Below are positions 4,177-64,000 of a stretch of DNA of 64,000 nucleotides, in pieces. The stretch is taken from the NCBI RefSeq assembly GCF_018350175.1, contig NC_058368.1:83392001-83456000 (forward strand), read 5' to 3'. A program made the translations under genes and the position numbers. The notes under the pieces are model-generated. The model saw only the letters and a program-made list of their open reading frames with translations. It did not search any database and was not told where the DNA came from. This DNA comes from Felis catus (Eukaryota). The stretch's first letter is position 1; each line of letters begins with the position of its first letter.

Positions 4177-5672
4177 AGTTCTATTTTTAGTTTTTTGAGA
4201 AACCTCCATACTGTTTTCCAGAGTGGCTGCACCAGCTTGCATTGCCACCAACAATGCAAAAGAGATCCTCTTTCTCCTCATCCTTGCCAACATCTGTTGT
4301 TGCCTAAGTTGTTAGCCATTCTGACAGGTGTGAGGTGGTATCTCATTGTGGTTTTGATTTGTATTTCCCTGATGATGAGTGATGTTGAGCATTTTTTCTG
4401 TGTCGGTTGGCCATCTGGATGTCTTCTTTGGAGGAGTGTCTCTTCATGTCTTTTGCCCATTGCTTCACTGGATTATTTGTTTTTTGGGTGTTGAGTTTGA
4501 TAAATTCTTTGTAGATATTGGATTCTAACCCTTTATTGGATATGTCATTTGCAAATATCTTCTCCCATTCAGTCGGTTGCCTTTTAGTTTTGCTGATTGT
4601 TTCCTTCAGTGTGCAGAAGTTTTTATTTTGATGAGGTCCCAATAGTTCATTTTTTCTTTTGTTTACCTTGCCTCCGGAGATGTGTTGAGTAAAAAATTGC
4701 TGCGGGCAAGATCAAAGAGGTTTTTGGCTGCTTTTTCCTCCAGGATTTGGATGGCTTCCTGTCTTACATTGAGGTCTTTCATCCACTTTGAGTTTATTTT
4801 TGTGTATGGTGTAAGAAAGTGGTCCAGGTTCATTCTTCTGCATGTCGCTGTCCAGTTTTCCCAACACCACTTGTTGAAGAGACTGTCCTTATTCCATTGG
4901 ATATTCTTTCTTGCTTTGTCAAAGATTAGTTGGCCATATGTTTGTGGGCCCATTTCTGTGTTCTCTATTCTATTCCATTGGTCCGAGTGTCTGTTCTTGT
5001 TCCAGTACCATACTGTATTGATGATTACAGCTTTATAGTATAGCTTGAAGTCTGGTATTCAACATAGTATTGGAAGTCTTAGCCTCTGCAATCAGATAAC
5101 ACAAAGAAATAAAAGGCATCCAAATCAGCCAGGAGGATGTCAAACTTTCACTCTTCACAGATGACATGATACTCTATGTGAAAAACCCAAAAGATTCCAC
5201 CAAAAAACTGCTAGAACTGATTCATGAATTCAGCAAAGTTGCAGGATATAAAATCAATGCACATAAATAGTTTGCATTCCTATACACCAACAGTGAAGCA
5301 ACAGAAAGAGAAATCAAGGAATTGATCCCATTTGCAGTTGCACCAAAAACCATAAAAAACCTAGGAATAAATCTAACAAAAGAGGTGAAAAATCTATACA
5401 CTGAAAAGTGCAGAAAGCTTATGAAAGAAATTGAAAAAGACACAAAGAAATTGAAAAAGATTCCATGCTCCTGGATAGGAAGAACAAATATTGTTAAGAT
5501 GTCAATACTATCCAAAGCAATCTACATATTCAACACGATCCCTATCAAAGTAACACCAGCATTCTTCACAGAGCTAGAACAAATAATCCTAAAATTTGTA
5601 TGGAACCAGAAAAGACCCCAAATAGCCAAGGCAATCTTGAAAAAGAAAACCAAATCAGGAGGCATCACAATC
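4177..5672 (-). mobile_element. 5'-inverted (twin-primed) L1 ORF2 insertion with its 3' end lost
   Basis: 4177-5055 is ORF2 on the minus strand and 5056-5672 is the adjacent upstream ORF2 segment on the plus strand. The breakpoints abut exactly (ggcatcacaatc | ccagacttcaagc). Confidence 0.9.
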
Positions 5673-9216: not shown

Positions 9217-12200
9217 GGGGAGGAGCCAAGATGGCAGAACAGCATGAAAGTTTTTTGTGTGTCTCACGTCCATGAGGTACAGCCAGACCATCACTAAACC
9301 ATCCTGCACACCTAGAACACTGACCTGAGGATTAACACACCAATCTACACAACCTGAACCACAGAACTCAGCAGGTATGTGGCACAGAGACGTGAACTGG
9401 GGGAGAAAGAAGCTGCGGAGGGTAGGGAGCCACTTTTGCAGGCAAAGAGAGGACAGAGACAGGGGGAGAGTATGGGAAAAGCACCTCCATAAAAGCAGCT
9501 GGAGAGAAAGTGGAAGAGTGGAAACAGCTGCAGGAACTGAAGTAAAAAGGGAGAAAGGAGAAAGGAAAGGGTTTAAATTCCATCAAGACTATAAACAGAG
9601 GGAACGCAGAGTCTGAAACACTGCAGCTCAATGCCTGGTGGTGCGCTGGTGGGAAGGGTGAATCCCCAGGAACAGAGTGGAGTCTGGAGGCCTTAGGGCC
9701 ACATGCAGGAGCTGGTTACACTGCTGGGAGGACACCTGTAGAGGCTGTGTGGGTACTCCAATGTCAAGGCCCCAGTGGACCCAGGAGAACAACCACATTC
9801 GCTGGTGCTGGAACAAGGTCATTAAGGGTGAAGCCTGGTGCTAGATGTGTGTTGTGATTTTCCATAATCCCTGAAACGCTGCTGCTACACTATCTTGTGA
9901 AATTTTTCTGGGGTGGACTGACACCTGGCTGCAGTCTCCGGGCATTGGCAGCAGCATGGTCCTGCAAATGTCCTGGGTGCGGCTGGCACCTGGCCATTGC
10001 TCAGTGAGACCCTCTTGCAGAGGGGCAGAATGGATCAAAGCCACAGCCCCTCAGAAGTAAGCGGTTGGGAAAAACAGCCACATCTGAGAAAAAACTCAGG
10101 ATGGAGGTGCTTTCTGGAGTGTGGTCATGGACTGTGTAAAAGCAGGGAGTGGACAAAAGTCAAAGACAAAGGACAGGTGCGTGATTGCTGATCAGGAAGA
10201 GCAGAGTTCTGATACTAGAGAATGGATGGCTGGGTTATGCCATTTTCACCACTCCTGTGCATGTGCATATGTACCTACAAGCACCACAAGAATCTACCCC
10301 AGTAAGCTAAGCAGTGCCATCTAGTGGAGAACAAAGCTGTTACACTAAGCCCTACCCTACTGGGCCAACCTCGCTCTTTAGTAACACAAGTCTCTCTGCC
10401 TGCTTAGTTTATGGACTATAAAGTGCTTCATCGTTTGACTTCTAGGGGAAAACAAAGTAATTTCAGTCGTCTTTCAGTCTGTTCACTGGTCCATCTATTC
10501 AATTTTTTTTCTTTCTTTTCTTTTTCTTTTTCTTTTTTCTCTTTTTCATTTCTTTTTCTTGAATACAGAAAGAAAAAATCATTTTTATTTTTAATTTTAT
10601 TAAAAATACATTTTTTAAATTTTTTGTACTATATATATATTTTAATATTTTTGTTTTTTCTTTCAAGGTTTATTTATTTTTGGGACAAAGAGAGACAGAG
10701 CATGAACGGGGGAGGGGCAGAGAGAGAGGGAGACACAGAATCGGAAACAGGCTCCAGACTCTGAGCCATCAGCCCAGAGCCCGACGCGGGGATCGAACTC
10801 ACGGACCGTGAGATCGTGACCTGGCTGAAGTCAGACGCTTAACCGACTGCGCCACCCAGGCGCCCCATGTACTATATTTTTTTACTTTTGTGTAACTTTT
10901 TTCAAAATATATTTTACTTCCATCATTTCAATTTAGTCTACTTCCATGTAATCATTTTTTTTCAAATTTTCAAAAGATTTCCTTTTTTTCTTTTTCCCCC
11001 TTTTTTCCCTCTAATCTGTGAAGCCCCTTTCAACACCCAGACCAAATCACACCTAGGATCTAGCATAATTTATTTGATTGTGTGTGTGTGTGTGTTTAAT
11101 TTTTAAAATTTTAATGTTTTTTTAAGTTACTTTATTTTAATTTTAATATTTTTACCTCATTAATTCCTTTTCTTCCTTCAAAATGATGAAATGAAGGAAT
11201 TCACCCCAAAAGAAAGAGCAGGAAGATATGACAGTGACTTGATCAAAACAGATACAAGCAAGATGTCTCAACCAGAATTTAGAATCATAATAATAAGAAT
11301 ACTAGCTGGAGTAAAAAATGGATTAGGTTCCCTTTATGCAGAGATACAAGAAGTAAAAGCTAGTCGGGATGAAATAAAACATGCTATAACTGAGCTGCAA
11401 TCTCGAATGGATGCCATGGTGGCAATGGTGGATGAGGCAGAAGAGAGAATCAGCGGTATTGAGGACAAACTTATGGAGAATAATGAAGCAAAAAAAAAAA
11501 AAAGGAGAATAAGGAAAAAGAGCACGATTTAAGAATTAGAGAAATCAGTGACTCATTAAAAAGGCATAACATCAGAATCCTAGGGGGAGAGAGAAATAGG
11601 GGTAGAAGGGTTATGTGAGCAAATCATAGCAGAAAACTTTCCTAACCTGGGGAAAGACACAGACATCAAACTCCAGGAAGCACAGAGGACTCCTATTAGA
11701 ATCAACAAAAACCGACTATCAACAAGGCATATCATAGTCAAATGCACAAAATACTCAAGCAAGGAGAGAATCATGAAAGCAGCAAGGGACAAAAAGTTCT
11801 TAACCTACAAGGGAAGACAGATCAGGTTTGCAACAAAATCTATCCACAGAATCTTGGCAGGCCAGAAAGGAGTGGCAGGATATATTCAGTGTGCTGAATC
11901 AGAAAAATATGTAGGCAAGAAATCTTTATCCAGCAAGGGTTTCATTCAAAATAGATGGAGAGATCAAAAGTTTCCCAGACAAACAAAAATTAAAGGAGTT
12001 TGTGACCACTAAACCAGCCCTGCAAGAAATTTTAAGGGGGACTCTCTGAGGGGAGAAATGAAGAAATTAGAAAATAATAAATAAATAAATAAATAAATAC
12101 CAAAAGCAACAAAGACAAGAAAGGACCAGAGAACACCAGAAACTCCAACTCTACAAGCAACATAATGGCAATAAATTCATATCTTTCGGTACTCACTCTA

Positions 12201-24022: not shown

Positions 24023-24997
24023 ATGGAAAACACCACTTGGGTGGTCAACCATACTGGACGATCAGATTTTGACCTAGTAGGACTCTTCAGTCAATATAAG
24101 TACCCAGCTCTCCTTTGTGTGATCGTCTTTGTGGTTTTCCTGATGGCCCTGTCTGGAAATATCATCCTGATCCTTGTGATATACTGTGATGCCCACCTTC
24201 ATAACCCTATGTACTTTTTTATCACCCAGTTGTCTTTCATGGATGTGATGTACATTTCTGTCACTGTGCCCAAGATGCTCATGGACCAGGTCTTGGGTGT
24301 AAATAAGATCTCAGCCCCTGAATGCGGGATGCAGATGTTTCTCTATTTGACATTAGGAGGTTCAGAAGTTTTCCTTCTAGCTGCCATGGCCTATGACCGC
24401 TATGTGGCCATCTGTCATCCACTCCTTTATCCTATCCTAATGAACCATAGGGTGTGTCTCCTCTTGGTCTCTTCTTCATGGTTTCTGGGATCTTTGGATG
24501 GATTTACTCTCACACCTGTCACCATGACATTCCCCTTCTGTAGATCCCGGGAGATCCACCATTTCTTCTGTGAGGTTCCTGCTGTAATGAAGATTTCCTG
24601 CTCAGACACTTCCCTCTATGAGACACTCATGTACTTATGTTGTGTTCTCATGCTCCTCATTCCTGTGACAGTCATTTCAAGCTCCTATTCTTTTATCCTC
24701 TTTACCATCCACAGGATGAACTCAGCAGTGGGACAGAAGAAGGCCTTTGCCACTTGTTCTTCCCACATGACTGTGGTCATCCTCTTCTATGGGGCTTCTG
24801 TCTATACCTACATGCTCCCCACCTCCTACCACACCCCTGAGAAGGACATGATTGTATCTTTTCTTTATACCATACTCACTCCTGTTCTAAACCCTTTAAT
24901 TTATAGTCTTAGGAATAAGGATGTCACAAGGGCTCTAAAAAGAATGTTAAATGTGGGTACTCTCAGGAAAATATTAGGTAGGAAATGTTTGTACTAA
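24023..24997 (+). CDS. Olfactory receptor, family 2 subfamily T (OR2T4/OR2T5/OR2T29-like), intact, 324 aa
   Basis: N-glycosylation sequons NTT and NHT. Motifs [49 protein letters not shown]. Segments [22 protein letters not shown] and SYHTPEKDM match recalled human OR2T4/2T5/2T29. Confidence 0.95.
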
Positions 24998-25360: not shown

Positions 25361-27653
25361 GGGTGCTATGGAGTGAGAAGTGATAAATTAATTGGGATAT
25401 AAAATTAATAGGAGAACCTAGGCAAAAGGTGTATGAGTGTTAATTGTACTATTATCATTATCCATACTAATTTTCTGTAAATTTGAAATTATTTAATAAT
25501 AAAACATAAAGTATCAGACTTCTATTTAAAAAAAAATTTCTTGCTTCATTGTGGCAGTGTAGGTGACAAATCATGCTCAGGTTCACATGGCTGATCATTA
25601 TTGCAATAATCCAGTTGTTGGCCTGCATTTAATTAGGGCAATTTTGTTCTTTAAGTTACAAATAGTGGCTGTTATCTCTCTGAAATTATTAGCATATTGT
25701 GGTAGAAGGTACTGTGGGTATAAAATTAACCCCAAGGAGGGTTTAGGGAAGTTTTCCAGCATAAGGATGTATCAGACCTTAGATTTGAAGTATGTAACTT
25801 ATTATAAAAAAAAAGCAGATGAAGACCATCAAATAATCTGTCAATTATTTTAAAAAAATCTTATCTTATATTATAATAAAAATAATAAGATATAGCTAAG
25901 TGAATTTCCCATATATACCAAATGTCTACTCTCCCTAAGGAATTTTAACTATAAGTGTATTTTGTTCAAATATTTGTAACAAAATACATAAATTGTTTGA
26001 GGCACATATGGAAAGTGTACAGCTCATAAGGACACACCAGTTCTACCTATGACATGTGAGCTTAGCCAAAGAGGCTGAAAAGAGACCCTAGAGCTCAGTG
26101 TTGAATGGTAACTAGATGCTACCTTCATATGAGTACAGGAGGCTAGGACCAGGGATCTTGCTCAAGGACATCCTGCCACAGAAAAGGAACACTATGAGCA
26201 AAGTTCAGGTGGTTGACCAAGCAGGAGAGAAATGTTCCAATGACACCTCCTTTCCAGATTCACTTTACAGCCCAATTATTGCCCTTTTGTGACCCAGATA
26301 TTTACAAATGATAATAAAATGACGAAACATCGATTTAAGCAGAGTGAAATTAGTAGGAATCAATTGAAGAAGAGCAACACTGAAGGTATGGAGACCAGGT
26401 GTGTGAGGACGATTGAGCTGAATAGTGTTGATCTAAGTGGAATGGACCATTCCAAGTGGAATTAGCAGCTTTGGTGAATAAGCAGGGCTTTGTTGAATCT
26501 GTTCCATAAAACCATAAATCTGGTTGCATGTGTACCAGTTTCCAATTAGCTGTGACAAATTGTGAATTATTAGGTGGTTTCAAAAGTAGAGATCCCTTTT
26601 TTTCTGGCACTCTCAATACCTTCATGACTATAAAATAAAGATCTGACAGTATTTTAGGACACAATGTTAGAAAATTAGATATATTACAATTACAACATTA
26701 TAATTATATTACAAAAATTATAGTATATGTTGCAGTAAAATAGAATGAATAAAATATGTACATTCTTTAACTTCTAAAGTAATTGAGAAGTGTATACATT
26801 ACCCCTCAATTTATTGGACCATAATAATACACATATTTGATTGTTCCATTGAAAACACTGTAGACATGGGAAACAAAATGGGGTAAAACAAAGCAAAACA
26901 AAACAATCTATGGAATCAAATTTTTTTTCCATAATTAAAATTTTACTATATCTCAAGAAAAAAAAGAATAAAATGTTTGAGGAAGAAGACCAAAGCAGGA
27001 GGCATCACAATCTCAGACTTTAACCTCAACGACAAAGCTGTAATCATCAAGACAGCATGGTATTGGCACAAAAACAGATACACAGACCAATGGAATAGAA
27101 TACAGACTCCAGAATTGTCCCACAAAAGTATGGCCAACTAATCTTTGACAAAGCAGGAAAGAATATCCAATGGAAAGAAGACAGTCACTTTAACAAATGG
27201 TGCTGGGAGAACTGGACAGCAACATGCAGAAGAATGAAATTAGACCACTTTCTTACACCATTCTCAAAAATAAACTCAAAATGGATGAAGGACCTGAATG
27301 TGAGACAGGAAACCATCAAAACCCTAGATAGAGGAGAAAGCAGAAAAAAACCTCCCGGACCTCAACCACAGCAATTTCTTATTTGACACCTCTCCAAAGG
27401 CAAGGGAATTAAAAGCAAAAATGAACTATTGGGACCTCATGAAGGTGAAAAGCTTTGGCACTGCAAAAGAAACAGTGAAAAAAACTAAAAGGCAACCAAT
27501 GGAATTGGAAAATATATTTGCAAATGACATATCAAAGGGCTAGTATCCAAAATCTATAAAGAACACACCAAACTCCACACCCGAAAAACAAATAATCCAG
27601 TGAAGAAATGGGCAGAAAACATGAATATACACTTCTCTAAAGAAGAAATCCAG

Positions 27654-27915
27654 CTCTCTCCCCGGTATCTCACCTCTGCGTCAGTGCAGTTAGGCATCAG
27701 CAAATTAATGAGAGGAGAGAGGAGGCCCCTGCTCTTGGGCACCCACAGGAACTTACTCCAGCTCCAGACACACCGTAAACACTTTCATCTAACGGAAGAT
27801 AAGCTGTGAAATCGGATTTCTGAACCACAAGACACTTGTGTAAAAACTGCATTCCATGCCACGCCTGAAATGTTCCAAAGCTCAGTTTGTATTTTCTTTT
27901 AGAAATTATTTTGGC
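27654..27915 (+). other. Non-L1 segment inside the TSD of the full-length L1 (putative 5' transduction)
   Basis: Lies between the left TSD (27639-27653) and the L1 start gaggagagagggaagatggcgg (27916). No resemblance to any L1 in the window. Confidence 0.75.
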
Positions 27916-30900
27916 GAGGAGAGAGGGAAGATGGCGGTGTAGGAGGACACTGGGCTCACCACGCATCCTGCTGATCACTTAGATTCCACCTACACCTGCC
28001 TAAATAACCCAGAAAACTGCCAGAGGATTAGCAGAACGGAGTCTCCGGAGCCAAGCGCAGACGAGAGGCCCATGGAAGAGGGTAGGAAGGATGGCAAGGC
28101 AGTGCGCGCTGCACGGACTGGCGGGAGGGAGCCAGGGCGAGGGGCAGCTCGCAGGCCAAGCAGAGCCCCTGAGTGTGGCTGGCAAAAGCGGAGGGGCCTG
28201 ACGGACTGTGTTCCGACAGCAAGCGCAACTTAGCCTCTGGGAGGTCATAAGTTAACAGCTCTGCTCGGAAAGCGGGAAGGCTGGAGGACAAAGGGAGGGA
28301 GAGCTGCTAAGCCCCCAGACGACAGAGCTCAGTTTGGTGGGGAACAAAGGCGCTCACCAGCGCCATCTCCCTCACCCATCCCCCAGCCAAAACCCAAAGG
28401 GAACCAGTTCCTGCCAGGGAACTTGCTCGCTCCTCGCAAACACCCAACTCTGTGCTTCTGTGGAGCCAAACCTCCGGCAGTGGATCTGACTCCCTCCCGC
28501 TGCCACAGGGCCCCTCCTGAAGTGGATCACCTAAGGAGAAGCGATCTAAGCCTGCCCCTCCTGCCCCCGTGCACCTTGCCTACCCACCCCAGCTAATATG
28601 CCAGATCCCCAGCATCACAAGCCTGGCAGTGTGCAAGTAACCCAGTCGGGTCACGCCACCCCACAGTGAATCCCGCCCCTAGGAGAGGGGAAGGGAAGGC
28701 ACAAACCAGTCTGACTGTGGCCCCAGCGGTGGGCTGGGGGCAGACACCAGGTCAGACTGCGGCCTCGCCCACCAACTCCAGTTATACACCACACCACAGG
28801 GGAAGTACCCTGCAGGACCTCACCACTCCAGGGACTATCCAAAATGACCAAGCGGAAGAATTCCCCTCAGAAGAATCTCCAGGAAATAACAACAGCTAAT
28901 GAACTGATCAAAAAAGATTTAAATAATATAACAGAAAGTGAATTTAGAATAATAGTCATATAATTAATTGCTGGTCTTGAAAACAGTATAGAGGACAGCA
29001 GAGAATCTCTTGCTACAGAGATCAAGGGACTAAGAAACAGTCACGAGGAGCTGAAAAGTGCTTTAAATGAAATGCAAAACAAAATGGAAACGACGACAGT
29101 TCAGATTGAAGAGCAGAGGAGAGAATAGGTGAACTAGAAGATAAAATTATGGAAAAAGAGGAAGCTGAGAGAAAGAGAGATAAAAAAATCCAGGAGTATG
29201 AGGGGAAAATTAGAGAACTAAGTGATACACTAAAAAGAAATAATATACGCATAATTGGTATCCCAGAGGAGGAAGAGAGAAGGAAAGGTGCTGAAGGGGT
29301 ACTTGAAGAAATTATAGCTGAGAACTTCCGTGAACTGGGGAAGGAAAAAGGCATTAAAATCCAAGAGGCACAGAGAACTCCCTTCAGACATAACTTGAAT
29401 CGATCTTCTGCACGACATATCATAGGGAAACTGGCAAAATACAAGTATAAAGAGAAAATTCTGAAAGCAGCAAGGGATAAACGTGCCCTCACATATAAAG
29501 GGAGACCTATAAGACTCGTGACTGATCTCTCTTTTGAAACTTGGCAGGCCAGAAAGAATTGGCACGAGATCTTCAATGTGCTAAACAGAAAAAATATGCA
29601 GCCGAGAATCCTTTATCCAGCAAGTCTGTCATTTAGAATAGAAGGAGAGATAAAGGTCTTCCCAAACAAACAAAAACTGAAGGAATTTGTCACCACTAAA
29701 CCAGCCCTACAAGAGATCCTAAGGGGGACCCTGTGAGACAAAGTACCAGAGACATCATTACAAGCATAAAACATACAGACATCACAATGACTCTAAACCC
29801 GTATCTTTCTATAATAACACTGAATGTAAATGGATTAAATGCGCCAACCAAAAGACATAGGGTATCAGAATGGATAAAAAAACAAGACCCATCTATTTGC
29901 TGTCTACAAGAGACTCATTTTAGACCTGAGGACACCTTTAGATTGAGAGTGAGGGGATGGAGAACTATTTATCATGCGACTGGAAGCCAAAAGAAAGCTG
30001 GAGTAGCCATACTTATATCAGATAAACTAGACTTTAAATTAAAGGCTGTAACAAGAGATGAAGAAGGGCATTATATAATAATCACAGGGTCTATCCATCA
30101 GGAAGAGTAACAAGTATAAATGTCTATGTGCCGAATACTGTAGCCCCCAAATATATAAAACAATTACTCATAAACATAAGCAACCTTACTGATAAGAATG
30201 TGGTAATTGCAGGGGACTTTAACACTCCACTTACAGAAATGGATAGATCATCTAGACACATGGTCAATAAAGAAACAAGGGCCCTGAATGAGACATTGGA
30301 TCAGATGGACTTGACAGATATATTTAGAACTCTGCATCCCAAAGCAACAGAATATACTTTCTTCTCGAGTGCACATGGAACATTCTCCAAGATAGATCAT
30401 ATTCTGGGTCACGAAACTGCCCTTCGTAAGTTTACAAGAATTGAAATTATACCATGCATACTTTCAGACCACAATGCTATGAAGCTTGACATCAACCACA
30501 GGAAAAAGTCTGGAAAACCTCCAAAAGCATGGAGGTTAAAGAACACCCTACTAACGAATGAGTGGGTCAACCAGGCAATTAGAGAAGAAATTAAAAAATA
30601 TATGGAAACAAACGAAAATGAAAATACAACAATCTAAATGCTTTGGGACACAGCGAAGGCAGTCCTGAGAGGAAAATACATTGCAATCCAGGCCTATCTC
30701 AAGAAACAAGGAAAATCCCAAATACAAAATCTAACAGCACACCTAAAGGAACTAGAAGCAGGACAGCAAAGGCAGCCTAAACCCAGCAGAAGAAGAGAAA
30801 TAAGAAAGATCAGAGCAGAAATAAACAATATAGAATCTAAAAAAAACTGTAGAGCAGATCAACGAAACCAAGAGTTGGTTTTTTGAAAAAATAAACAAAA

Positions 30901-33863
30901 TTGGCAAACCTCTAGCCAGGCTTCTCAGAAAAAAAAAAAAAAAAGGGAGATGACCCAAATAGATAAAATCATGAATGAAAATGGAATGATTACAACCAAT
31001 CCCTCAGAGATACAAACAATTATCAGGGAATACTATGGAAAATTATATGCCAACAAATTGGACAACCTGGAAGAAATGGACAAATTCCTAAACACCCACA
31101 CTCTTCCAAAACTCAATCAGGAGGAAAGAGAAAGCTTGAACTGACCCATAACCAGGGAAGAAATTGAATCAGTTATCAAAAATCTCCCAACAAATAAGAG
31201 TCCAGGACCAGATGGCTTCCCAGGGAGTTCTACCAGACGTTTAAAGCAGAGATAATACCTATCCTTCTCAAGCTATTCCAATAAATAAAAGGGGAAGGAA
31301 AACTTCCAGACTCATTCTATGAAGCCAGTATTACTTTGATTCCTAAACCAGACAGAGACCCAGTAAAAAAAGAGAACTACAGGCCAATATCCCTGATGAA
31401 TATGCATGCAAAAATTCTCAATAAGATACTAGCAAATCGAATTCAACGGCATATAAAAAGAATTATTCACCATGACCAAGTGGGATTCTTTCCTGGGATG
31501 CAGGGCTGGTTCAACATTCGCAAATCAATCAATGTGATACATCACATTAACAAAAAAAAAAGAGAAGAACCATATGATCCTGTCAATCGATGCAGAAAAG
31601 GGCTTTGACAAAATCCAGCACCATTTCTTAGTAAAAACCCTTGAGAAAGTCGGGATAGAAGGAACATACTTAAAGATCATAAAAGCCATTTATGAAAAGC
31701 CCACAGCTAACATCATCCTCAATGGGGAAAAACTGAGAGCTTTTTCCCTGAGATCAGGAACACGACAAGGATGTCCACTCTCACCGCTGCTGTTTAACAT
31801 AGTGCTGGAATTCTAGCATCAGCAATCAGACAACAAAAGGAAATCAAATGCATCAAAATTGGCAAAGATGAAGTCAAGCTTTTGCTTTTTGCAGATGACA
31901 TGATATTATACATGGAAAATCCGATAGACTCCACCAAAAGTCTACTAGAACTGATACAGGAATTCAGCAAAGTTGCAGGATACAAAATCAATGTACAGAA
32001 ATCAGTTGCATTCTTATACACTAACAATGAAGCAACAGAAAGACAAATAAAGAAACTGATCCTATTCACATTTGCACCAAGAAGCATAAAATACCTAGGA
32101 ATAAATCTAACCAAAGATGTAAAGGATCTGTATGCTGAAAACTATAGAAAGCTTATGAAGGTAATTGAAGGAGATATAAAGAAATGGAAAGACATTCCCT
32201 GTTCATGGATTGGAAGAATAAATATTGTCAAAGTGTCAATACTACCCAAAGCTATCTACACATTCAATGTAATCCCAATCAAAATTGCACCAGCATTCTT
32301 CTCGAAACTAGAACAAGCAATCCTAAAATTCATATGGAACCACAAAAGGCCCCGAATAGCCAAAGTAATTTTGAAGAAGAAGACCAAAGCAGGAGGCATC
32401 ACAATCCCAGACTTTAGCCTCTACTACAAAGCTGTCATCATCAAGACAGCATGGTATTGGCACAAAAACAGACACATAGACCAATGGAATAGAATAGAAA
32501 CCCCAGAACTAGACCCACAAACGTATGGCCAACTAATCTTTGACAAAGCAGAAAAGAACATCCAATGGAAAAAAGACAGCCTTTTTAACAAATGGTGCTG
32601 GGAGAACTGGACAGCAACATGCAGAAGGTTGAAACTAGACCACTTTCTCACACCATTCCCAAAAATAAACTCAAAATGGATAAAGGACCTGAATGTGAGA
32701 CAGGAAACCATCATAACCTTAGAGGAGAAAGCAGGAAAAGACCTCTCTGACTTCAGCCGTAGCAATCTCTTACTCGACACATCCCCAAAGGCAAGGGAAT
32801 TAAAAGCAAAAGTGAATTATTGGGACCTTATGAAGATAAAAAGCTTCTGCACAGCAAAGGAAACAACCAACAAAACTAAAAGACAACCAACGGAATGGGA
32901 AAAGATATTTGCAAATGACATATCAGACAAAGGGCTAGTATCCAAAATCTATAAAGAGCTCACCAAACTCCACACCCGAAAAACAAACAACCCAGTGAAG
33001 AAATGGGCAGAAAACATGAATAGACACTTCTCTAAAGAAGACATCCGGATGGCCAACGGGCACATGAAAAGATGCTCAACGTCGCTCCTTATCAGGGAAA
33101 TACAAATCAAAACCACACTCAGACATCACCTCACGCCAGTCAGAGTGGCCAAAATGAACAAATCAGGAGACTATAGATGCTGGAGAGGATGTGGAGAAAT
33201 GGGAACCCTCTTGCACTGTTGGTGGGAATGCAAATTGGTGCAACCACTCTGGAAAGCAGTGTGGAGGTTCCTCAGAAAATCAAAAATAGACCTACCCTAT
33301 GACCCAGCAATAGCACTGCTAGGAATTTACCCAAGGGATACAGGAGTGCTGATGCATAGGGGCACTTGTACCCCAATGTTTATAGCAGCACTCTCAACAA
33401 TAGCCAAATTATGGAAAGAGCCTAAATGTCCATCAACTGATGAATGGATAAAGAAATTGTGGTTTATATACACAATGGAATACTACGTGGCAATGAGAAA
33501 AAATGAAATATGGCCTTTTGTAGCAACGTGGATGGAACTGGAGAGTGTGATGCTAAGTGAAATAAGCCATACAGAGAAAGACAGATACCATATGGTTTCA
33601 CTCTTATGTGGATCCTGAGAAACGTAACAGAAACCCATGGAGGAGGGGAAGGAAAAAAAAAGAGGTTGGAGTGGGAGAGAGCCAAAGCATAAGAGACTCT
33701 TAAAAACTGAGAACAAACTGAGGGTTGACGGGGGATGGGAGGGAGGGGGGGATGGGTGATGGGTATTGAGGAGGGCACCTTTTGGGATGAGCACTGGGTG
33801 TTGTATGGAAACCAATTTGACAATAAACTTCACATATTAAAAAATAAATAAAATAAAATAAAA
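27916..33863 (+). mobile_element. Full-length young felid LINE-1 (about 5.95 kb), inactivated
   Basis: CpG-rich 5'UTR with aagatggcgg (YY1-type) start. ORF1 28844-29736 is frameshifted near 29110. ORF2 29787-33618 has stops and frameshifts (EN LNVNGLN/CLQETH/GDFN, RT FADDM, C-terminal Cys domain). 3'UTR and A tail present. 15-bp TSD aaagaagaaatccag. Confidence 0.97.
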
Positions 33864-35084
33864 AAAGAAGAAATCCAGATGGCCAACCCGACATGAAAAG
33901 ATGCTCAATGTCACTCCTCATCAGAGAAATACAAATCAAAACCACACTCAGATATCACCTCACACCAGTCAGAGTGGCTAAAATGAACAAATCAGGAAAC
34001 TATGGGTGCTGGAGAGGATGTGGAGAAATGAGAACCCTCTTGCGCTGCTGGTGGGAATGCAAACTGGTGCAGCCGCTCTGGAGAACAGTATGGAGGTTCC
34101 TTAAAAAATTAAAAATAGATCTATCCTATGAGCCAGCAACAGCACTGCTAGGAATTTCCCCAAGGGATACAGGAGTGCTGATCCATAGGGGCACTTGTAC
34201 CGCAATGTTTATAGCAACACTTTCAACAATAGCCAAATTATGGAAAGAGCCTAAATGTCCACCAACTGATGAATGGATAAAGAAATTGTGGTTTATGTAC
34301 AAAATGCAATACTACGTGGCAATGAGAAAGAATGAAATATGGGCTTTTGTAGCAACATGGATGGAACTGGAGAGTGTTATGCTAAGTGAAATAAGTGCTA
34401 CAGAGAAGGACAGATTCCATATGTTTTCACTCCTATGTGGATCCTGAGAAACTTAACAGAAGACCATGGGGGAGGGGAAGGAAAAAAAAGTTAGAGAGGG
34501 AGGGAGGCAAACCATAAGAAACTCTTAAAAACTGAGAATAAACTGAGGGTTGATGGGAAGTGGGAGGGAGGGAAAGTGGCAATGGGCATTGAGAAGGGCA
34601 TCTGTTGGAATGAGCACTGGGTGTTGTATGGAAACCAATTTGACAATAAATTTCATATATTAAAAAAATAAAAGGAAAAAAATACTGCTTGCATAATATT
34701 CACAGTTACTAGACGTGGAAGAACACTTGATGCTCAATTTTTTTGTATCTATAATAAAAGCAAGAAATGGACAAATTTCTGGCATTCAGGTTTACTTGCT
34801 TATAGTGCCATATAAGTAGATGTGTACTGCAGTAGTTTAAAATGTTCAAATCAGAATGTGTTATGTGTTTGTGCTTGTGCTCATGATGCCACCAGCATTT
34901 TGCCAAAGAAATCATTTTTATCCCATGAAAACCAGCCCTCAGTGTTCTTGCATACCCCATAGGTCATTAATGACTATGATTGGGATTATTACAAATTTAG
35001 TCATAAACTAACATGGGTTAGGTGGTGAAACTTGTAGTGTTTTTTTACAAATATTCCACTTTTAATTTCTAATTGTATTTTAAC

Positions 35085-50911: not shown

Positions 50912-51865
50912 CTAAGCATCACTTGTGGATACTTTCTGAGCAGATAAACATCTTGACAGTATCTTTTGAAATGCCCCCATGACATCCTTGTTTCTGAGGC
51001 TGTAGATAAGAGGATTGAGCATGGGTGTGACAATGGTATAGAAGGCTGAAACTACTTTGTCCTGCTCAGGAGTGTGAAAAGACTGGGGCAGAACATAAGT
51101 GTAGAAGGCAGCCCCATAGAAAATGCTGACCACAGTCAAGTGGGAAGAGCAAGTAGTAAAGGCCTTTTTCCGGCCTTCAGCAGAGCGCATTCTGTGGACA
51201 GTTAACAAAATAAGAGAGTAGGAGATTGAGATGATAGAGATAGGGATGAGCAACATGAGTACACAGCAGATGTACATCAAGGTTTCATACAAGGATGTGT
51301 CAGCACAGGCTAGTCTGAGAACTGCAGGGATCTCACAGAAAAAATGGTTGATATTTCGGGAGTGACAATAGGGAACATTCATGGTGATGGGGGTGAGCAG
51401 AAAGCCATCCAGGGACCCCCCAAACCAGGCACCAGCAGCCAGCAGGAGACACACCCTGCGGTTCATCAGGACTGGATACCTAAGAGGGTTACAGACAGCC
51501 ACATAGCGGTCATAGGCCATGAGGCCCAAGAGGAAGAACTCCGAGCCAATCATGCTCAAGTAGAGGAAGATCTGGATGCCGCAACCCACAAAGGAAATGG
51601 TCTTCTCTTTAGAAACCATGTCGACCAGAAGTTTTGGGACAGTGGTACAAATGAAAAGAGTATCCATGATGGACAGCTGGCTGAGCAGAAAGTACATAGG
51701 AGTATGGAGACGGGAGTCCACCTGAATCAAGAATATCATGACCAAATTTGCAGTTACAGCTACCACAAAAATAGCAAAAATAACAGCAAAGACAATCCCA
51801 GTAGTTTTATTGTTCACCAGAAGCCCCAGGAGGATAAAATCAGAAGATAAAGTTATATTCTTCAT
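50912..51865 (-). CDS. OR2T11: Olfactory receptor 2T11 ortholog, intact, 317 aa
   Basis: All OR motifs present ([54 protein letters not shown]). Segments [47 protein letters not shown] and the C-terminus [10 protein letters not shown] match recalled human OR2T11. Confidence 0.9.
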
Positions 51866-56485: not shown

Positions 56486-58039
56486 AATATTTAAAAAGAG
56501 ATGTAAAGTAAAATGCAAGCTCTGCAAAAAGACCTCAGTAATGTTTTGGTTATGTCTAACTTAATATATCACTTTCTTAAACCAAAACCTATCTATGGGT
56601 GGAGGTACTTTGAGAGCTTCCCACAGTTGAATTAGGTCATTAGTTCAATAAAAACAGACATTTTTATATGATTATTCTCTCCTTGAATATGATCAGAGTT
56701 AGTTATTAAGCTCAATATCATTGGAAAATCAACACGTTCTCAACCTCTGTTTCCCACCAGGTGGTCCCTTCTGGAATTTGTTGGTGAATCCATAAAAACA
56801 ACTCCCACCACTTCCCCCTTTGAATATATATGACACTGTGCACCTGGTGTTACCTTCCTCTAATTTGTGTGTTGTGTGAGGATATAAAATGTGAAATTTT
56901 TGGTCTGATGGTGGACATCTGGGAAGTGGATGCCCAAAGTTATATGGTTAGAACTTAAGCTTGACTCACTATGACTCTTCCTTACAGTATGAGCAGAAGG
57001 AAACTTCCTCAACAGGCTAGATGTTCACAGCACTGGCTATATTCTTTTCTGCTGCATGGGCCCCAGTGTGTATAAATGAAGTTTGAGCTTGCAATCTCAT
57101 TAAATTTTGAGCCTCTAGTTGAAGCTGGTCTGTATCAACATTGAGTATCAAGATGGGGTGCTCATAAATTTCTGCTGAGAGTGGGAGTAGGTATCATCTT
57201 TGTTTGAGAAAGCACCAGTCCAATAATAGGATCTTAAAAGTAATGTGTATAAACTATGCTTACAGGATATTTTGTATAGAAATCAAGAGATAAATAGGCA
57301 ACATTTAAAAGTTTTCATCTTGGTCTTGTTTGCAATAGTAAGAAAGAAGAAGAAATTTAAGCATCTGCAGTTGGACACACAAATAATTTGTTTTAATATT
57401 ATAATGTGTAATAGAATTTCAAGCAACCATTGGAATGTAAGGTGGATCTATAATCATTAGCATGGTATGACAGTTTTATTGTATTCTTAAGTGAAAAATG
57501 TGGCACATTTACAATTTCCTTATCATATATATGTATGTATATGAATCATATATGTGATAAGTAGATATGTATATATATGTATATGCACATATATAACGAT
57601 AGTTTATTGTGCATATATGTGTGTATATATTATGCACATATAGCACACATTTATAACATATATACATATATGTAATTATGAAATAAATCCAAGTTTTCAC
57701 TAATGGTGCACATTCAAGTGACATCAGTTTTTTCTGGAAAACATTTTTTGTCTTCTTACAAGTAGAGATTATATGTATAAAAAGAGATCCCTTTAAGGAT
57801 AATTTCAAAGGATGAGCTTCCTAGTCCAAACGTGGGCAATTAATACATATAATTTTCCACATTTCAATCTTTAAATATTTGGAGGATGACTGAGCTACCA
57901 TAAACTTACACCAGAATCCTGCCCATATCTACTTCCGAATCTGAAAACAAAATTCATCAGATTGTTCTCAACTCTTAAGTCCCATACTACAAGATGCCAT
58001 CTGAAGCAAATCGTTATGGTCTTAAAATGTGTACGTCAG

Positions 58040-58255
58040 GGGGTGCCTGGGGTGGCTCAGTCGGTTGAGCGTCCGACTTCGGCTCAGGTCATGATCTCGT
58101 GGTCCATGAGTTCAAGCCCCGCGTCGGGCTCTGTGCTGACAGCTCAGAACCTGGAGCCTGTTTCAGATTCTGTGTCTCCCTCTCTCTCTGACCCTCCCCG
58201 TTCATGCTCTGTCTCTCTGTCTCAAAAATAAATAAACGTTAAAAAAAACATTAAA
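58040..58255 (+). mobile_element. Felid CanSINE
   Basis: Near-consensus element. TSD aaaatgtgtaYgtYag at 58024-58039 and 58256-58271. Confidence 0.95.
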
Positions 58256-60928
58256 AAAATGTGTATGTTAGTTTTTGTAGGCTACATTCAGAGTGACTCA
58301 CTAACATGCACATATCAAAAAACTCAGAAAATATAATGTTTAAATACATAGTGTATTAGAAAATTTAAAAAATTAACAAATACATACAAAAGAATATCCA
58401 GAAATAATCTAGACTTAGCATTGGTGTAAACAATTCCAATTTGCTAGTTTAAGTTTCCCAGTTTTCTATGATGACTTCAAACTCTAAGATGCCACTTTAC
58501 CCATTACTCCTGATGTAGTTTAATCTGATCCTTACACAGAATCTGTACCTCAAATGGCCTGGGCAAAAGACCAGCATCCGCCACTTAATAGCTATGTGAC
58601 CCCAGGGAAGTCACTCCTCAAGTTCCTCATTGGCCAGCAGAGCCTCAGAGCAGCCCTTGTCCTGAGAATTATTCTGGAGTCTGTGTAAGACTCTTGTAAC
58701 AGTGCTGGAAACATAATAATATTATCAAAGTATTGACTATAAATTGTAGGATCTTCTCTTACTGAAAGCAAATAACTCTCCATTTTGGTAACGGTGAAAA
58801 AATAAAACAGGCCTCAGAGTAAGAAAACAATATTAATTTCTGAATTTTAAGATTTCCAGTAGCTAGCCTTGTTTTAGTCACTTAAATCTCTTTACCCTAA
58901 TTTTCCCTATATTTAAGGCAGATATGATAGTAAAAATTATTATAAATCATGTAAATTTTAGATGATAATTTTAAGATTGTAAGAACCTTTATTTTAAATA
59001 AATAATAGTATTGGACAAGTATCTATCTTAATATTCAAGCCATGTATTAAATGCACAGCATATGCTGTAACGTTGTTCTTAAAAATCTCAAAGACTTTTA
59101 CAATCTTTCAAATTAGAAAAGACCATTGTGTTCAGGCAGCTCTGAGTTCAGTTAAATTTATTAGTCTTTATCTCATGAAAGAAGATTCCCCCATACGTTA
59201 TTTAGAGAGGCAAGGAAGCAGCTGTCTCTACTGCTGCTTCATCAGTCTTGAAAAACTAAGGTCTGAATTTAACTATATTTAAACATGTTTCCTGATTTTA
59301 TCTTTCTGTGTTTATTAGATACTTATTAAAATCAATACTCATTGCAGTTAAATGCTAGAAATTCAGGAGAAGATCACTTTTGCTATCAACAGAAATGTGT
59401 AATCCTAAACCTCATTTTAACGTCTAAGTTTCCATTAAATGGAAGCATCTTTAGTCTCCACAACTGAGCAAATGCCTACCTATGACACTTAACTCCTGTT
59501 TGCTCAAAAGGAAAATGGTTATCTATGACAAATCTAGAAAAAGCCAATTATAGTGTAATAAAACAAGCTTAAAAATCTAATCAAAGAAAATGAAATAAAG
59601 CAACATGGAATAATCAAGTGTTGATACTATAGGTATGGATTTATCACCTTTATATTCTTAACTAATTGTGCAAACCAAGGTGATATAGTAGAACAGAAAC
59701 TTTAAATATTTTCTTAAAATTTAAGCCTTGTAATTTTAAAAGAGAAATCACTGACATATTTGATAAATATTTGGCAAAATCATGGTAAGTATGCAAGTTT
59801 AACATAATCTATATTTAACACAATACAAAATGAAAAGAAAAAGCAATGTGTGTATATACACACACATATATAATACTTCACTAACTGTTATGAAGAGGCC
59901 TTTTGTTTTAGTTAAATAGTATCTCAATGCCATGAAATTATACATTGCAATTGTTCTGCCTCGTGAAAATAACTTCTTTACACAGTCCGTATCTGAAGTT
60001 TTAAACGTTTTGTTTTCATACTGTTATCAGACCTACTGGCAGGAATTTGTCCAAACTGAGAAGTCTAACTTGTAAGGATGTACCACAGAAGAGGCCTGCA
60101 TTCATTTCTCCACACTAAATAACTTCTATTTTTTTTTCTCACTCCTTTATGTCTCAAATCTTCCTGGGTATTTAATAAGTCATTGAAAAGTTAAACTTTA
60201 TACCACCCATTATTTCAATGTTTACATTATATAAATACATATTTTATTTTTTGTGTAAATAAAATAAGTGTGTGGAAGCAAGAGTTCAATTAATTTCATG
60301 TCCATATCCCTCACCTGTAGAAAGATATCAGGGAGGGCATGACTGCCCTTCAACATGCATCATCAGGTCCTTGGTAGACAGACTACCTGGTATCTAACAG
60401 AAAATGAACATGGGTTTTAACAACATATCACTCTCAGAGGAATTTTCCCCCAGTTTATCATTAGGATTAATGAGCTGGGAGCTGCTCATTGTGCAGCATG
60501 CTCCTCTTCTTTGGAAATTGCTTACCAACTAATGGCAAGGTTTGACACCAAAACACAAGGAAAACATCAGAAGACATGGTTCTAAGGCTCCCATCTGTCT
60601 CTTGCTAGGAAGAGGGAATAATTTGCTCTGAACATCAGTTTCTCTATCTCACATGGGGTTAATTACTTCTGTAAATACTTGGTAGGACTTAGGGCAAATC
60701 AATTAAAACCATATAATACATTTAAATATAATATGGAATTTGGAGAATTTTCCCTTAATATTTAACACATAATCTAGAACAGTACTCGGTATGTGCAAGT
60801 ATGCAGTTGTTAAATTTAAAGTTAGTTTTAAATTATAATTTATAATTATATTTCCCAAGTTAATATAATGCATTTTTAATAAATAGGAAAATATAGTTAA
60901 CACAAATTATTTAATATACTAATTTGTT

Positions 60929-61173
60929 GGGGCGCCTGGGTGGCGCAGTCGGTTAAGCGTCTGACTTCAGCCAGGTCACGATCTCGCGGTCCGTGAGTTC
61001 GAGCCCCGCGTCGGGCTCTGGGCTGATGGCTCAGAGCCTGGAGCCTGTTTCCGATTCTGTGTCTCCCTCTCTCTCTGCCCCTCCCCCGTTCATGCTCTGT
61101 CTCTCTCTGTCCCAAAAATAAATAAACGTTGGAAAAAAAAATTTTAAAAATAAAAAATAAAAAAATAAAATAA
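60929..61173 (+). mobile_element. Very young felid SINE (SINEC_Fc type)
   Basis: Most CpGs intact, long A-rich tail. Perfect 16-bp TSD aatatactaatttgtt at 60913-60928 and 61174-61189. Confidence 0.97.
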
Positions 61174-61424
61174 AATATACTAATTTGTTAACATTACTGG
61201 GGAGAAAATCTGTGAGCATATGTTTTAAGTGAGGGCAAAGTATACAGACCATATGTATAATTTTTAATTAAATTACATTTAAGTTTCATACAATAGAAAA
61301 GTACAAAAATTAGAAGACACATGATTGATAAATCATCACAGAATAAAAACACAAATGTTTACTAATGTGGGGAATTAGCCTTAGGAAATGTTAGTACACC
61401 TTTTAAGAAATTAAATACAACATT

Positions 61425-61638
61425 GGAACGCCTGAGTGGCTCAGTCAGTTAAGCATCTGACGTCGGCTCAGGTCATGATCTCGCAGTTTTTGAGTTCTAG
61501 CCCCGCGTCGGGCTCTGTGCTGACAGCTCAGAGCCTGGAGTCTGCTTCAGATTCTGTGTCTCCTCTCTCTGCCTCTCCCATGCTCATGCGCTGTCTCTCT
61601 CTGTCTCAATAATAAATAAATATTAGAAAAATTATAAA
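61425..61638 (+). mobile_element. CanSINE
   Basis: SINE head, body and tail. 20-bp TSD aagaaattaaatMcaacatt at 61405-61424 and 61639-61658. Confidence 0.94.
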
Positions 61639-61699
61639 AAGAAATTAAATCCAACATTATACTTATTGAAGTAGCAAAGCAGTAAAGACTAGAAGTATC

Positions 61700-62594: not shown

Positions 62595-64000
62595 TTACGG
62601 CTCAGTCCGTTGGCGGCGTAGGGTCAATTTTAAAGGATTGTCCTTAGTCCGATCAACAGTCCAGGTTGCCTTTGAAGGTCCAATGAGGTCTGAGAATGGG
62701 TCCACTGGTTTGGCGTGGGTGTAATGGATCCAGGAGGTGATTCCGTCTACTTTGATGGCCGTAGGCATTGTCAGGATGACCTGGAAGGGTCCTTTCCACC
62801 TGGGTTCCAGAGTCTCCTGCCGATGACATTTGATGGGGACCCAATCCCCCGGTCAGAATTGAGGAATAGGCGGGGGTCCAGTCTCATAAAGTTCTTTTAA
62901 CTTGGGCCATACATCTTCATGGACCCTCTGCAAGGCTTGTAGGGAGAACAAGAGTTCAAGACCATTATCATTCTCAGTTTTGACAAGGTCATCTTTTAGG
63001 TAAGGGATGATGGGGGGTGGTTTACCATGCATTATTTCATAGGGTGTGAGTCTCAGTTTGTATGGGGAGTTACGCACCCTGAACAGAGTGTAGGGGAGAA
63101 GGACTGCTCAATTAGTACCAGTCTCCATGGTCAATTTGGTTAGGGTCTCTTTTAATGTTCTATTCATTCTCTCTACCTGTCCTGAGCTTTGGGGTCGGAA
63201 TGCACAATGTAATTTCCAATCAGCCCCAAGTATGGAAGCCAGTCCCTGACTTACCTTAGAGACGAATGCAGGTCCATTGTCTGACCCTATCATTACTGGA
63301 AAACCATACCTGGGCAGGATTTCTTCTAGGATCTTTTTGGCTACAATCTGTGCCGTTTCATTCTTGGTTGGAAAGGCTTCAGTCCATCCTGAAAAGGTAT
63401 CTACAAAAACTAGCAAATACTTATATCCATATTTTCCTGGTTTTACCTCAGTGAAATCTACTTCCCAATAGGTCCCCGGTCTGCTCCCTCTTTGTCTTAC
63501 CCCTGTTGTCTGAGGATTGCTACTTGCATTGTTGAGTTGGCACACTGTACATTTAGTGACTACTTGATCGACCTTATCAGAGACATTTCTGATTTTTAGT
63601 CCAGTCTGTCTCAGTAAGTCCAACATTCGCCGGGAACCTAAGTGGGTGCTGCGATGGATCCGCTCTAGAACTTGCCATCCTAGTTTATCTGGGAGTATAA
63701 TGCTGCTTTTGGAGTCTCTCCACCAGCCATCTTTGATCCGGGTCATAGGAAGTTTACGCATCCATTGAATGTCGCTTTCTGAATACTCAGGGCTGGGGGG
63801 CAATTCCCGGGGTCCGGGGTCTGGCAGCTGTAGGGTCAGCAATTGTGCTGGGGGCCAAGCTATGTTTTTTTTTTTTTTTTTTTTTTTTTGCAGTCTGATC
63901 GGCCAAATTGTTGCCCCGGGAAACTGGGTTGGTTGTCTTCTGGTGTCCTGGGCAATGCACAATCGCTAGCTTTTTGGGTTCCCATAAGGCTGCTAGCAGG
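62595..64000 (-). pseudogene. pol: Class I (gammaretrovirus-like) ERV pol: RNase H end plus integrase, disrupted; continues past the right edge
   Basis: IVHCPGHQK..GNNLAD (RNase H). HHCC motif HRSTH..CTVC. Catalytic motifs WEVDFTE, GSDNGPAF, GQVERMN. WKGPF and NPLKL near the end. In-frame TGA stops at 63108 and 62853 and a frameshift at an A25 run. Confidence 0.96.

Follow-up and report, generated by a model that had tools for sequence, protein, structure and literature searches.

L1 5' transduction by upstream promoters is described in the available text of a review (PMC6035798). In the portions at hand of two further papers, such transductions were termed extremely rare (PMC4862182) and were put at <1% of the insertions newly arising in the human germline (PMC9341517), the latter portion also covering a macaque L1RS 5' transduction from an intron of PRDM4 and describing a cap-derived G. 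For hg38, the accessible part of PMC13174262 reports 17 mRNA/lncRNA-L1 5' transduction chimeras, which combine unique RNA with mostly near full-length L1s, and gives an intact L1 5' end as typical of 5'-transduced elements. In RAP1GDS1-L1PA2, as presented in the same part of that paper, splicing made use of a cryptic acceptor 15 bp ahead of the source L1, and one source gave rise to two independent insertions.

The feature analysed here lies in a 64-kb window, the whole stretch of DNA that was examined, and resembles the upstream-promoter 5' transductions, as covered in the available text of PMC6035798 and PMC9341517, in that a full-length L1 with an A-rich tail and extra 5' sequence are contained in one target-site duplication (TSD). 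As in macaque L1RS in the latter source, a G at the 5' junction may have come from the cap. It differs in that the segment is about 260 bp long instead of 4 bp and belongs to an old, fixed-looking copy of the felid germline. With the hg38 chimeras, in the part of PMC13174262 available, the locus shares a near full-length L1, unique 5' sequence on the 150-bp scale and a 15-bp TSD; those chimeras carry mostly spliced exons, whereas here the 5'UTR is complete and an acceptor-like site, 13 bp ahead of the L1, has been kept along with its upstream tract. The small-RNA/L1 chimeras (U6, 5S, 7SK, tRNA) included in the same part of that paper likewise have non-L1 sequence joined to the front of an L1 inside a single TSD; unlike them, the present locus has no Rfam match and its L1 is not 5'-truncated. 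A literature search, which was thin on subscription papers and poor at matching the term 5', returned no felid 5' transduction. With 5' transductions already known in human and macaque, the feature is most likely a further case of the same rare process.

Anatomy of the insertion

The coordinates of the young L1, its flanks and the older L1 that hosts it are listed in Table 1. The initial annotation had described a perfect 15-bp TSD around 262 bp of extra sequence and a full-length L1, and this was borne out: the two flanks are identical at 15 of 15 bases, they could be extended on neither side, and the 15-mer has two sites in all on the + strand of the window. The left copy is directly preceded by a pyrimidine/purine junction, CT/AAAG, which as the outer target site is of the endonuclease type, a loose match with two differences from TT/AAAA. 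The last G of the left TSD could equally be a cap-derived G following a 14-bp TSD.

Table 1. Positions of the young L1, its extra 5' segment and the surrounding host L1 in the window.
Feature	Position	Strand	Evidence
Left part of the older, 5'-truncated host L1 (end of ORF2), split by the insertion	26976..27653	+	89% identity to young L1 32370-33046; 8.8% non-CpG divergence
Left target-site duplication, 15 bp	27639..27653	+	exact match to 33864-33878
Extra 5' segment, ~260 bp, non-L1, starting with C + 9 pyrimidines	27654..27915	+	no second copy in the window; no Rfam match
Candidate parental endonuclease site (T-rich tract, TT/AGAA junction) and candidate left parental TSD (the next 12-17 bp)	27893..27915	+	sequence
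L1 5'UTR, GC-rich, with a presumably YY1-like motif near its start	27916..28843 (start 27913-27918)	+	88% identity to L001 over 585 columns from 27918
L1 ORF1, disrupted by a frameshift and an early stop	28844..29736	+	open stretches 28964-29125 and 29110-29733, not in the same frame; Pfam PF02994, PF17490
L1 ORF2, split into several open pieces	29787..33618	+	frame analysis; 572-aa C-terminal ORF
L1 3'UTR, polyA signal and A-rich tail	33619..33863	+	sequence; 96% identity to young L1 end at 1-1216
Right target-site duplication	33864..33878	+	exact match to 27639-27653
Older host L1, right part, back in register	33879..34684	+	89.5% identity to young L1 33049-33848

The host L1 had also been said to resume seamlessly after the right TSD, and it does. 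With the insert removed, its sequence across the join agreed with the corresponding region of the young L1 at 190 of 207 positions, the alignment containing a single 1-base gap, so no bases beyond the TSD were lost or gained. The host differs from the young L1 by 8.3-8.8% at non-CpG positions. One TSD encloses both the extra 5' sequence and the L1, and the host is continuous around them; a single TPRT insertion bearing extra 5' sequence is well supported by the TSD, the tail, the continuity of the host and the intact 5' end of the L1.

The young L1, presumably of carnivore type, is dead despite its full length, since stops and frameshifts interrupt both ORF1 and ORF2; the C-terminal ORF of ORF2 gave a weak Pfam match to RVT_1, below the cut-off. 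The A-rich tail reaches 33863, and no 3' transduction was found at the 3' end of the element (33619-33863). Dating relied on another young L1, whose 3' end occupies positions 1-1216 of the window and is 96% identical to the element under study. The divergence between the two copies is 3.0%, half of which places the young L1 at about 1.5% from its family.

One other copy of the same 5'UTR family, L001, was found by a motif scan in metagenome contigs and was used to locate the 5' end of the L1. It starts at the same G-rich leader as the window copy, and no alignment was obtained between the approximately 50 bases preceding it and the final 27 bases of the segment; the segment is thus absent from the 5'UTR of the one other copy available (1 of 1). 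A TT/AAAG junction, clearly of the endonuclease type, lies 14 bases upstream of the G-rich start of L001, the window counterpart lying 12-17 bases upstream of the L1. The alignment of the two copies contains a 12-base gap and is more divergent in its last 100 columns, and L001 is rich in intact CpGs, 14 of its 29 being decayed in the window copy. On account of the gap, the greater divergence at the 3' end and the many CpGs retained, L001 may belong to another subfamily. The alignment confirms that the young L1 is complete to its 5' end, as had been annotated, but not that it begins precisely at 27916: L001 aligns from 27918, the G-rich leader could begin at 27913, and the start may be placed anywhere within 27913-27918.

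The window as a whole is L1-rich mammalian DNA. It contains two intact olfactory-receptor ORFs, 60% identical to each other (24023-24997, + strand, 324 aa; 50912-51865, − strand, 317 aa), which look like members of family OR2T, and a retroviral integrase ORF (63108-63761, − strand; Pfam rve and Integrase_H2C2) of an endogenous retrovirus that continues past the window end. An older L1 piece at 4177-5672 has an internal inversion whose two arms share 8 bases (5052-5059), an arrangement seen in twin-primed insertions. A repeat of about 230-250 bp is present in four copies (10619-10869, 58037-58260, 60927-61178, and 61423-61649) that are 80-92% alike and are presumed to be carnivore SINEs.

The extra 5' segment and its two ends

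The 262 bp upstream of the L1 had been regarded as unrelated to it, which agrees with the lack of a second copy in the 64-kb window, where the best non-self BLAST match was 24 bp (E=0.16), and with its absence from L001. No Rfam family was matched at the gathering score anywhere in the window, the segment included, which speaks against a known structural RNA as the 5' partner. Pfam gave no match for either of the two short open frames of the segment, which translate its 5' part only, and the 51-aa frame on the + strand had none among 1.84 billion protein representatives. A motif from the segment found no match in metagenome contigs, a collection in which the control motif from the L1 5'UTR was itself found at only one locus; the control motif had no match in the viral and prokaryote collections, and the phage collection contained no match to the segment. 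The observed/expected CpG ratio is 0.44 in the segment, a value resting on only 6 CpGs, and 0.18 in the window.

The segment opens with a C followed by nine pyrimidines, a pattern noticed after the fact and present at 430 of 127,960 positions (0.3%); the shorter pattern of a C and four pyrimidines was present at 2737 of 127,960 (2.1%). This opening resembles a start of the TCT/5'TOP type, and 27654 is plausible as the transcription start of the source transcript. The pyrimidine run, the candidate cap G and the CpG level are suggestive only and no proof of a promoter.

At the opposite end, the initial annotation had placed a T-run/purine junction followed by 15 bp. The junction is present at 27900/27901; the distance is not fixed at 15 bp, since an L1 start within 27913-27918 leaves a candidate parent TSD of 12-17 bp. 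The 15-mer following the TT/AGAA junction (27901-27915) occurs at a single place in the window, both strands counted together, and the young L1 has no 3' transduction able to carry its partner, so it is a candidate and not a demonstrated duplication. For 127,760 positions taken as random points, TT followed by four purines with at least three A lay 10-20 or 7-20 bases upstream in 4.2-5.2% of cases, and a match to TT/AAAA with at most one mismatch at these distances in 13-16%; the strictest endonuclease pattern (0.03%) had been fitted to the observed letters and was excluded from the evidence. Judged from these letters, the TT/AGAA junction modestly favours a genuine L1 insertion site, and 27901-27915 may plausibly be the TSD of the parent L1. 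The T tract with the AG at 27901-27902 also resembles a 3' splice acceptor that was left unused, 13 bases ahead of the L1, and retention of the upstream tract together with the AG would point to unspliced read-through at the 3' end of the segment.

Segment words in public sequencing runs

Part of the segment is present in 20 of the 24 listed runs, across 12 studies and four organisms, and 17 of the 24 contain at least half of the 26 words sampled from it. All 10 runs of organism A with segment words are small (1-146 million letters), no deep run of this organism being among those listed, and three deep runs, from organisms B, C, and D, have shares of 0.61-0.65. The share reaches 1.00 in X1, which is possibly the source of the assembly and was not counted as independent; otherwise the ceiling is 0.73, in four rows of one study. 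Rows X18-X20 (shares of 0.35-0.42) and the habitat labels were left out of the evidence, and the six RNA rows are metatranscriptome contigs, which say nothing on expression or strand.

By calculation, shares of 0.61-0.73 correspond to 1.0-1.6% divergence or to contigs covering 170-200 bases. A unique source diverged by 3-4% would be expected to give a share of 0.28-0.39; the observed values exceed this, and the rows therefore probably do not show the source locus. Three readings fit the shares, namely a multi-copy family with a consensus about 1.5% away, partial contigs of one locus, or an orthologous locus in relatives. From the word matches, the runs other than X1 probably reflect the same locus or a family consensus, and there are hints that the segment has several copies.

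Origin of the extra 5' sequence

The most economical mechanism for the extra 5' sequence is 5' transduction, and one L1 retrotransposition event with read-through from upstream is considered the probable explanation of the locus. A promoter lying approximately 260 bases ahead of a full-length parent L1 would have started the transcript, which would have crossed the site where the parent had inserted and continued into the L1; reverse transcription would then have copied this RNA completely, up to its 5' end, and integration would have taken place where the endonuclease had nicked the older L1, giving rise to the 15-bp TSD. That the insertion was a single event is shown by the TSD, the tail, the intact L1 5' end and the continuity of the host; a position of the segment immediately ahead of the parent, with its start site at 27654 and the parent TSD at 27901-27915, is what we infer for the source locus.

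It is unlikely, if not negligibly so, that the segment never lay beside an L1 and was joined to it from a second template, by a reverse transcriptase that reached the end of the L1 RNA and moved on to another RNA, by trans-splicing or ligation, or as filler from nearby DNA. An L1 start at 27913 would leave the segment ending in four T, similar to U6-type partners, which end in a T run; no Rfam family was matched, and no template is present in the 64-kb window. Joining from two templates would also leave the endonuclease-like junction unexplained, although such a junction arises by chance in 4-16% of cases, and the acceptor-like T tract and AG kept before the L1 are more in keeping with unspliced genomic read-through than with the end of an exon. 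A precedent for such joining is found in the available part of PMC13174262, in human full-length L1s attached to gene 5' exons with no source L1 found in the gene (MAP3K13, FHIT). That the insertion did not arise in one event, the segment having entered later at the junction of TSD and L1 or having been created by an assembly error, is very improbable: nothing speaks directly in favour of it, neither a TSD nor a tail of its own is seen around the segment, which fills precisely the interval from the TSD to the start of the L1, the 20 largest direct-repeat families listed include none that flanks it alone, and its words recur in runs of four organisms from 12 studies.

A further reading makes the segment an established, multi-copy 5' extension of an L1 sub-lineage, any transduction having occurred once in an ancestor, and this is rated as quite unlikely. 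The divergence of 1.0-1.6% calculated from the shares agrees with the distance of about 1.5% between the L1 and its family, the matches of organism A are all in small runs, and the shares other than that of X1 stop at 0.73; the same shares would, however, be obtained from contigs of 170-200 bases from one locus or from the orthologous locus in relatives, and L001 has no such extension (1 of 1). That the segment is part of the normal 5'UTR, the circumstance named at the outset as contradicting a transduction, is weakened by this one copy, while a 5'UTR restricted to a sub-lineage still fits the multi-copy hint from the runs. It is doubtful, though worth stating, that the segment is a captured upstream leader which spread with a felid L1 sub-lineage, forming a multi-copy 5'-transduction family with the founder scar in every daughter, in which case an L1 would have been captured in the course of acquiring a new 5' end; this possibility overlaps both the read-through transduction and the 5' extension.

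Taken as a single event, the locus preserves a rare process in clean fossil form, and the segment would serve as a tag for tracing a felid donor L1 that was once active, together with the germline promoter that drove it. Transitional sequences for L1 5'UTR swaps are lacking according to the accessible part of PMC13174262. If the tag proved to be common to many L1 copies, it would represent an intermediate in the 5'UTR swaps that are thought to drive L1 evolution.
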